A DNA stretch of 64,000 nucleotides from Escherichia coli (GCF_003790525.1 NZ_CP033635.1); one strand, 5' to 3'; shown: positions 62,522-64,000, counted from the stretch's first letter. Made by a program: numbers and translations. The notes: a model not told the origin generated them from the letters alone.

Positions 62522-63616
62522 TTACACAATTTCGCGGCAGGCGCGATAGAGATCGTTCCAGTCGCTGCGCTCTTTGACTATAGTTTCCAGATATTCACGC
62601 CATACCACGTCGTCCTGCACGGGATCTTTTACCACCGCGCCGATAAGGCTTGCGGCGATATCCCGCGGATGTAGCACGCCGTCGCCAAAATGGCCCGCCA
62701 GCGCCATACCGTTGTTGATAACGGAGATCGCCTCCGCGGTGCTGAGAGTACTGGTTGGCGACTTAATTTTCGTTTTGCCGTCAACCGTCAGGCCGTTTCG
62801 CAGTTCGCGGAAGATTTGCACGACTCGCTGGATCTCTTTAAGCGCTGGCGGTTCGGCAGGAAGTGCCAGCGCCTGACCCAGTTCGGCGACGCGGCGAGTG
62901 ACAATGTTAATCTCTTCTTCTTCGCTGGCGGGTACGGGCAAAATGACCGTGTTGAAACGACGTTTAAGTGCGGAAGAAAGCTCGTTAACGCCTTTATCCC
63001 GGTTGTTGGCGGTGGCGATAACGTTAAAGCCGCGCGTCGCCTGGACCTCTTCATTCAGTTCGGGGATAGGCAGCGTTTTTTCCGACAGGATCGTGATCAG
63101 CGTGTCCTGAACATCGGCAGGAATACGCGTCAGCTCTTCTACGCGGGCAATCTGCCCGCGTGCCATCGCCCGCATCAATGGGCTTTCTACCAGCGCCGAA
63201 CGTGACGGACCTTTAGAGAGCAACTCCGCGTAGTTCCAGCCATAACGCATTTGTTCTTCACCGGTGCCTGCGGTGCCCTGAATAATTAACGTTGAGTCGC
63301 CGCTGATGGCAGCCGCCAGATGTTCAGAGACCCAGGATTTCGCAGTGCCGGGTACGCCATACAACAGCAGTGCGCGATCGGTTGCCAGCGTGGCAACGGC
63401 GGTTTCGATAATCCGCCTGTTGCCGATATATTTCGGCGTGACCTCAAAACCATTTTCCAGTTGCCCGCCTAACAGATAAGTAGCAACGGACCACGGAGAA
63501 ATAGCCCAGTTTTCCGGGCGCGGATGAGTATCGTTTTTTTGCAGCTCATCCAGTTCTTCTGCAAATTGTTGTTCGGCATGTCGGCGTAAAACGGCGGCAG
63601 TAGCGGTGGAAGTCAT
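62522..63616 (-). CDS. MoxR-like AAA+ ATPase, about 365 aa
   Basis: P-loop LLLYGVPGTAKS, Walker B-like IARVEELTRIP, sensor region FNVIATANN...LKRRF; ATG overlaps upstream stop (ATGA). Confidence 0.8.
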   Translation of the reverse strand: MTSTATAAVLRRHAEQQFAEELDELQKNDTHPRPENWAISPWSVATYLLGGQLENGFEVTPKYIGNRRIIETAVATLATDRALLLYGVPGTAKSWVSEHLAAAISGDSTLIIQGTAGTGEEQMRYGWNYAELLSKGPSRSALVESPLMRAMARGQIARVEELTRIPADVQDTLITILSEKTLPIPELNEEVQATRGFNVIATANNRDKGVNELSSALKRRFNTVILPVPASEEEEINIVTRRVAELGQALALPAEPPALKEIQRVVQIFRELRNGLTVDGKTKIKSPTSTLSTAEAISVINNGMALAGHFGDGVLHPRDIAASLIGAVVKDPVQDDVVWREYLETIVKERSDWNDLYRACREIV

Positions 63617-64000
63617 AAAGTAGTTTCTCCGACAAAAAACGAATGAAGTTGAATTCGGTGCGCCAGCGTGGCGCTCAGGGCAGTAAAGGCTGCCTCGCAA
63701 TAAGGCGTTTGTTGTGCGTCATGCGGCCACTTGTCAATGACATCATTGAGGACTTCGGGGGCCAGCAGGCAGGCGAAATCACTCATCACATGGCGCAGGG
63801 CGTAGTCAAAGCGCGCGGAATCATGTTTCACCCAACGGTGCAGCTCCGTGACCATTTGCTGGCTCAGGCGCAGGCTAAAGAGCGACGCATCCAGCGGTAA
63901 CAGGGCGATGTAGCGTTGTAAATGTTCGCCGCCCATTACCGAGAACAGTAACGTCAACACTGGCTCGTGTTCTTCTACGGGCAGGCATTGCAGAAGCTCA
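63613..64000 (-). CDS. hypothetical protein, 5'-truncated by window end (C-terminal 129 codons visible)
   Basis: Open frame runs from the window edge to TGA at 63613..63615, overlapping the AAA gene start. Confidence 0.6.
   Translation of the reverse strand, partial: ELLQCLPVEEHEPVLTLLFSVMGGEHLQRYIALLPLDASLFSLRLSQQMVTELHRWVKHDSARFDYALRHVMSDFACLLAPEVLNDVIDKWPHDAQQTPYCEAAFTALSATLAHRIQLHSFFVGETTL

Follow-up and report, generated by a model that had tools for sequence, protein, structure and literature searches.

The window analyzed here, a stretch of 64,000 nucleotides from Escherichia coli (GCF_003790525.1, NZ_CP033635.1), ends inside an operon of five genes. In order, these encode a SWIM zinc-finger protein, a DUF5691 protein, a MoxR AAA+ ATPase of the YehL type, a DUF5682 protein and a VWA protein of the CoxE type. 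The last three genes lie within the window, the DUF5691 gene is cut by its edge, and the SWIM gene lies beyond it. The features are as follows.

Upstream of the DUF5691 gene, outside the window: SWIM zinc finger family protein, 440 aa (RefSeq, NC_010498.1)
63613-63999, minus strand: last 128 codons (residues 407-534) and TGA stop of the gene for the DUF5691 protein (534 aa, RefSeq WP_001007101.1)
63625-63630, minus strand: GGAGAA, a Shine-Dalgarno-like candidate for the ATPase gene, read from the sequence inside the 3' end of the DUF5691 gene
63613-63616, minus strand: ATGA stop/start overlap of the DUF5691 and ATPase genes, read from the sequence
62522-63616, minus strand: MoxR-type AAA+ ATPase of the YehL type, 364 aa (Pfam AAA_5, identity to YehL, motifs)
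60255-62504, minus strand: DUF5682 protein, 749 aa, with helical domains after a TIKI/TraB/ChaN-like domain at the N-terminus
59096-60265, minus strand: VWA (CoxE-type) protein, 389 aa (Pfam VWA_CoxE, identity to YehP, MIDAS)
58968-59090, minus strand: remnant of yhcG (DUF1016/PDDEXK), which in this strain marks the island's right-hand side (RefSeq pseudogene; 88% to K-12 yhcG over 86 nt)

The gene at the window edge

An open frame on the minus strand runs from 63999 to 63616 and translates into 128 codons, which are followed by a TGA at 63615-63613. The ATPase ATG occupies 63616-63614, so that the DUF5691 stop and the ATPase start share the tetranucleotide ATGA. This frame and its overlap with the ATPase start had been described in an earlier note on this DNA, and the sequence and the RefSeq boundaries agree with that description. 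The window edge splits codon 406, whose last base is position 64000, and leaves the first 405 codons of the gene outside. The remaining five frames of the edge stretch contain 4 to 8 stops apiece, and an equally long frame stayed open in 157 of 20,000 composition-matched shuffles (about 0.8%). The edge frame is unlikely to be open by chance.

Over its last 1.5 kb, the window matches E. coli SMS-3-5 (NC_010498.1) and a few other E. coli chromosomes with 100% identity, and its reverse complement differs from the NC_010498.1 record at a single base in 13,501. The earlier note had considered that a stop just past the window, with no plausible start, might close the frame. In the adjacent region of NC_010498.1 the frame instead runs on for 405 codons to an ATG, giving a full-length protein of 534 aa annotated as "DUF5691 domain-containing protein", with the same boundaries in RefSeq. 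The gene, which the earlier note had called 5'-truncated, is thus truncated by the window edge alone, and it is the second gene of the operon, not the first.

The 129 visible residues, for which the earlier note recognised no family, belong to Pfam DUF5691 (PF18944). The full 534-aa protein matches this model with an E-value of 1.2e-122 over residues 7-526 (model positions 2-489 of 491). Against a profile built solely from homologues of at most 45% identity, the visible fragment scores 71 bits by itself (E 5e-24, one comparison) and covers profile positions 386-507, that is, the C-terminal 122. The family comprises 6243 cluster representatives (50% identity) at E <= 0.001, and its members are mostly 500-545 aa long. 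Between E. coli alleles of the island, the divergent ones used for this purpose having 97.3% and 98.0% DNA identity, the dN/dS of the DUF5691 gene is 0.25-0.26, and that of its visible 129 codons 0.26. Judged from these comparisons, the gene is coding and under purifying selection.

The edge frame might also be taken for non-coding read-through 5' of the ATPase gene, or for part of a decaying pseudogene there, a reading whose sole argument is that the window cut hides any start codon. This reading is already refuted by the full-length 534-aa ORF in NC_010498.1, the end-to-end Pfam match and the size of the family, and by a gene that is intact in 33 of 33 E. coli carriers with a dN/dS of 0.26. 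By all these sequence criteria, it is close to certain that the gene is a DUF5691 gene, second in a five-gene operon, and that the operon itself is correctly identified. RefSeq and Pfam already contain this gene and the family to which it belongs, DUF5691 being defined there as a family of unknown function, so that the edge frame is not new as a finding. It matters little in that respect, showing an operon that runs off the window and whose missing part is already annotated.

Operon organization and upstream region

The earlier note had deduced a module of at least four genes. There are five, with the 440-aa SWIM gene upstream of the DUF5691 gene, and the SWIM stop and the DUF5691 ATG also form an ATGA overlap. 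The junctions thus consist of two 4-nt overlaps, a 17-nt gap between the ATPase and DUF5682 genes, and an 11-nt overlap between the DUF5682 and VWA genes. The ATPase ATG is preceded, at a distance of 10 nt, by a GGAG (63630-63627). The longest ORF of the ATPase gene starts at a TTG at 63700 and would encode 392 aa (62522-63700, minus strand); the annotated ATG at 63616 (364 aa) is favoured because of the alignment with YehL and the conserved ATGA junctions.

With the SWIM gene upstream of the DUF5691 gene, the start of the operon falls beyond the window, including its first gene and any promoter. The earlier note had placed both there, which holds for the first gene; no promoter was identified for the operon, a sigma-70 consensus scan of the 232-nt spacer between gltD and the SWIM gene having returned none. 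This spacer corresponds to NC_010498.1 3587229-3587460, or 9233-9464 of the region fetched from that record (L001). Two weak candidates picked out by eye, TTGTTT-18-TATACT (L001 9322-9351) and TTGACC (around L001 9426), are not relied on. Over a 246-nt alignment of the spacer and a few flanking bases, a single difference separates three E. coli alleles, and dS in the flanking genes is 0.06-0.20. The spacer opens, right after the gltD stop, with a 14-bp hairpin (-26.7 kcal/mol, z -5.5) that has no adjacent U-run. The spacer might be a regulatory leader under constraint, or else a segment that was exchanged recently.

The island in E. coli

The five genes form an island that is found in 33 of 5426 complete E. 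coli genomes and is intact in all 33. It is located between gltD and yhcG/nanQ and begins directly after the gltD stop. In SMS-3-5 it occupies L001 9233-17933, in place of gltF, the fimbrial genes yhcA, yhcD, yhcE and yhcF, and most of yhcG of K-12; two carriers with divergent alleles have it at the same site with yhcG intact. The G+C content of the five genes is 55-59%. At the position of the intact yhcG of other carriers, the present strain has two overlapping hypothetical genes on the plus strand (58187-58874; 190 aa and 48 aa; 41.7% G+C), whose products have no match in Pfam, NCBIfam or PADLOC. They have the appearance of a small, separate insertion by which yhcG was destroyed here. Elsewhere in the window, acrF, encoding an RND efflux permease (8467-11564, minus strand), is annotated as a frameshifted pseudogene.

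Among the island components, DUF5691 is the most divergent between E. coli alleles. The dN/dS of the SWIM, ATPase and VWA genes is 0.05-0.20, and that of the DUF5682 gene is 0.16-0.37 on just 9-13 differences. The divergence of the DUF5691 gene (63613-63999 and L001 10784-12388) is mosaic: stretches free of differences alternate with blocks whose dS is 0.2-0.47, and dN/dS ranges from 0.15 to 0.46. These two properties speak against diversifying selection on DUF5691, and the divergence is therefore ascribed to recombination and not to positive selection. As the DUF5682 gene is nearly identical between alleles (dS 0.011), the pattern as a whole points to recombination with a more distant allele.

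Conservation of the five-gene module in bacteria

The module was surveyed with one genome per species. With one peptide pattern, which gives a lower bound, at least 245 relatives were found, and 80 loci were retained. With four context loci, from Pelomonas, Hymenobacter, Trichocoleus and Streptomyces, they make up a set of 84 loci, all of whose ORFs were searched for homology. This set spans Proteobacteria, Cyanobacteria, Verrucomicrobia, Chloroflexi and other groups. The order SWIM, DUF5691, AAA, DUF5682, VWA on one strand was found in 60 of the 84 loci, and the rest appear mostly to be cut by contig ends. All five genes are present in Pelomonas, in the cyanobacterium Trichocoleus and in Streptomyces, where the layout is divergent; the Hymenobacter locus has four of the five, with no VWA gene seen alongside. 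The 4-nt overlap between the DUF5691 and ATPase genes recurs in 36 of the 71 loci in which both genes could be placed, the others mostly having gaps of 3-93 nt. Judged by these loci, the five genes are a conserved unit that is widespread in bacteria.

The surroundings of the unit are far less constant. ORFs within 4 kb were clustered over the 84 loci in search of a linked client or effector gene, and no flanking family occurs in more than 8 loci; the families common to a few of them reflect genus-level synteny. DUF5691 was found in none of 50,697 phage records and in only five plasmid records, all of large, non-mobilizable plasmids. In the Hymenobacter locus, which is on a metagenome contig, four small genes are inserted between the ATPase and DUF5682 genes (L004 12072-14459). 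Two of their products carry SMI1/KNR4 (SUKH) domains and one a DUF6985 domain. SUKH proteins are immunity proteins in toxin systems.

The individual proteins

The AlphaFold2 model of the DUF5691 protein, with a pLDDT of 89.5, confidently predicts a HEAT-like alpha-solenoid, a generic fold call that is silent on the binding partner; the part encoded in the window forms the last helical repeats. We infer that the protein is non-enzymatic. Searches of PDB sequences with the DUF5691 profile and with DUF5682 returned nothing useful. More informative are three long metagenomic proteins of 965-1048 aa (P0376, P0379 and P0288), in which DUF5691 forms the C-terminal half and is preceded by an extra 450-510 residues. 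In P0376 (970 aa), the sole one compared, residues 6-441 align to the SWIM protein with 37% identity, and this protein therefore joins the products of the first two genes in one chain. Such fusions are a classical sign of proteins acting in concert.

The SWIM protein matches Pfam SWIM (E 2.4e-6), and its CxCx6CxH motif (C65, C67, C74, H76) is at least 90% conserved among 81 homologues. The ATPase matches Pfam AAA_5 (E 1.6e-38), with weak matches to bpMoxR (E 3e-4, 49 residues) and to nSTAND at the P-loop; among 82 homologues, conservation is at least 90% for its Walker A motif GVPGTAKS, the EE at the Walker B position and the arginine motif ALKRRF. In the VWA protein, which matches Pfam VWA_CoxE (E 3.6e-52), the MIDAS residues (D-x-S-x-S, T, D) reach the same level of conservation, at least 90%, in 68 homologues. 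From these motifs, the ATPase and MIDAS sites are apparently intact. A scan of the five proteins against NCBIfam gave nothing beyond generic AAA matches.

The DUF5682 protein has more than 8,000 detected homologues. Its N-terminal domain of about 250 residues, which is also present in YehM-type proteins, has a TIKI/TraB/ChaN-like alpha/beta fold. H13, H14, E37, E82 and H213 are invariant in 37 sequences, and both histidines lie in strand-GxxH elements. This pattern of conserved His and Glu residues suggests catalysis rather than pure adaptation, the residues being a putative active site.

The literature searched makes no mention of DUF5691 or DUF5682, and contains no functional study of DUF5691, DUF5682, DUF4132, the yeh genes or SWIM together with MoxR; a mention of YehQ in a crosslinking paper turned out to be a decoy-database match. 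The operon is a well-defined known unknown, in which two large families with no described function, DUF5691 and DUF5682, take part in a MoxR-VWA module.

Proposed mechanism and alternatives

Placed by pairwise identity and by its neighbours, the operon is of the MoxR-VWA kind and nearest to the YehL subfamily. In characterised MoxR-VWA pairs, the ATPase hexamer is presumed to remodel a partner protein that is gripped by the VWA/MIDAS protein (PMC3893208, PMC7159879). From gene order, fusions, folds and conserved motifs, we infer a mechanism in which the module has two halves and an additional subunit. First, the DUF5691 helical platform would pair with the SWIM protein to form an adaptor or recognition half. 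This pairing is the most likely one because natural single-chain fusions exist, and a scaffold or adaptor role of DUF5691 with the SWIM protein is probable. Second, the MoxR hexamer and its VWA/MIDAS partner would form the motor half, gripping and remodelling the bound protein. Finally, DUF5682 may supply a hydrolytic step, as a peptidase or an esterase, by means of its TIKI/TraB-like domain; that the remodelling is coupled to a hydrolase in this way is a tentative proposal. The contacts among the five proteins are suggested by gene order and fusions only. Taken as a whole, the reading that we somewhat favour is a self-contained remodelling machine built on MoxR and VWA, to which the SWIM and HEAT-like proteins would contribute an adaptor pair and DUF5682 a hydrolase subunit. 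It is preferred to a dedicated maturation factor because no client gene travels with the module.

One alternative is indeed that the operon encodes a dedicated maturation chaperone, in which MoxR and VWA insert a cofactor into, or activate, a single unlinked enzyme complex, and the other proteins are non-hydrolytic accessory adaptors. Such a role has been demonstrated for characterised MoxR subfamilies (PMC3893208), and the VWA protein matches the CoxE-type family. The occurrence of the yehLM paralogue also looks like that of a housekeeping rather than a conflict function, its DNA being found in 5333 of 5426 E. coli genomes as against 33 for the island. In addition, phages yielded no copies of the module and plasmids only those in the five large, non-mobilizable records. 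However, the flanking genes of the 84 loci are not conserved, unlike those of the cox, nor and cbb systems. In E. coli the island sits between glutamate synthase and sialic-acid genes, which strains lacking the island possess as well. The invariant His and Glu residues of DUF5682, too, suggest catalysis over a purely adaptor function. A maturation chaperone is thus considered improbable.

We regard as equally improbable that the module is an anti-phage or conflict system analogous to the MoxR-vWA ternary conflict systems, in which the SWIM/HEAT pair would sense an invader molecule, with MoxR-VWA as a licensing switch and the TIKI-like domain as effector peptidase. Several features are consistent with it: the island is accessory in E. 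coli, where 33 of 5426 genomes carry it, the module occurs patchily across taxa and in varying genomic surroundings, SUKH genes lie inside the one Hymenobacter operon, and a MoxR-vWA core with extra components parallels the published systems (PMC7159879). The high divergence of DUF5691 between alleles could be read in the same sense, but it is explained by mosaic blocks of recombination, with a dN/dS of 0.2-0.3, and not by positive selection. Moreover, when the five proteins were scanned with PADLOC-DB 2.0, four had no match and the ATPase had two marginal IetA matches (E 1e-3) with no significant domain. The module corresponds to none of the four described ternary types, its architecture is uniform with no variable effector domains, and its neighbourhood is not a recognisable defence island.

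Comparison with known systems

CoxD-CoxE, NorQ-NorD and CbbQ-CbbO are characterised MoxR-VWA chaperone pairs. In these, as in RavA-ViaA, the MoxR ATPase gene adjoins a gene for a VWA/MIDAS protein, which is also the arrangement of the island, where this protein is of the CoxE type. By contrast, the characterised pairs are two-gene units with a known client that is linked to them or acted on, whereas the island has five genes and no linked client. Compared with these pairs, it encodes three extra conserved proteins.

The MoxR-vWA ternary conflict systems (Kaur et al. 2020, PMC7159879) resemble the island in that a MoxR and vWA core is likewise joined by conserved components in one operon, and in that helical-repeat scaffolds are common. 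The island nevertheless lacks the components that define the ternary types, no VMAP, inactive STAND NTPase, FtsH or beta-propeller having been found by Pfam in its five proteins. Its vWA protein, unlike those of the ternary systems, carries no variable effector domain. SWIM and TraB/TIKI domains, for their part, are not mentioned in the ternary-systems paper (PMC7159879). There is a modest chance that the module and yehLMPQ together represent an undescribed class of ATP-driven five-component machine, distinct from the four ternary systems. In such a class, a SWIM/HEAT sensor pair would steer both the MoxR-VWA motor and a peptidase of the TIKI type towards a specific protein, either of the cell or of an invader, and if this is true, the machine would be a regulated processing or immune-like system.

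Two of the additional proteins can be related to known folds. HEAT/ARM scaffolds such as AP-1 beta, the PP2A A subunit and the CpcE/F lyases resemble the DUF5691 model at 7-17% identity over partial alignments (94-233 of 534 residues), a likeness that indicates the fold class only. As for DUF5682, it has no sequence-level Pfam match to TraB or related families of the TIKI/TraB/PrgY/ChaN/erythromycin-esterase superfamily, and it differs from the members of that superfamily in having its TIKI-like domain fused to helical and alpha/beta domains, together about 500 residues long, that are absent from them.

The closest relative of the operon is the yehL-yehM-yehP-yehQ cluster of E. coli K-12, which represents the YehL subfamily of MoxR ATPases, of unknown function (PMC3893208). 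The two clusters share a homologous core of three genes in identical order, with 41% identity between the island ATPase and YehL over 350 residues, 27% between the DUF5682 protein and YehM, and 38% between the VWA protein and YehP. By these identities, the island core is a distant paralogue of yehLMP. A SWIM zinc-finger protein is encoded in both clusters, but YehQ (about 666 aa at full length) is encoded after the VWA gene, whereas in the island the 440-aa SWIM protein comes first, and the two have the zinc-finger motif alone in common. The possibility that DUF5691 is a diverged YehQ was discarded, as BLASTP found nothing and the probability was 0.3% when profiles were compared with those of the YehQ family; a diverged YehI was discarded on BLASTP alone, which also found nothing. 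DUF5691, for which neither YehQ nor YehI is a detectable counterpart, is therefore what sets the island system apart from yeh. The paralogue of the three-gene core of the island, yehLMP, is present in almost every E. coli. The island provides handles for experiment in the form of a HEAT-like scaffold that also occurs fused to the SWIM protein, an apparently intact ATPase and MIDAS site and a TIKI-like putative hydrolase domain, which would make the function of YehL-type MoxR proteins testable in E. coli.
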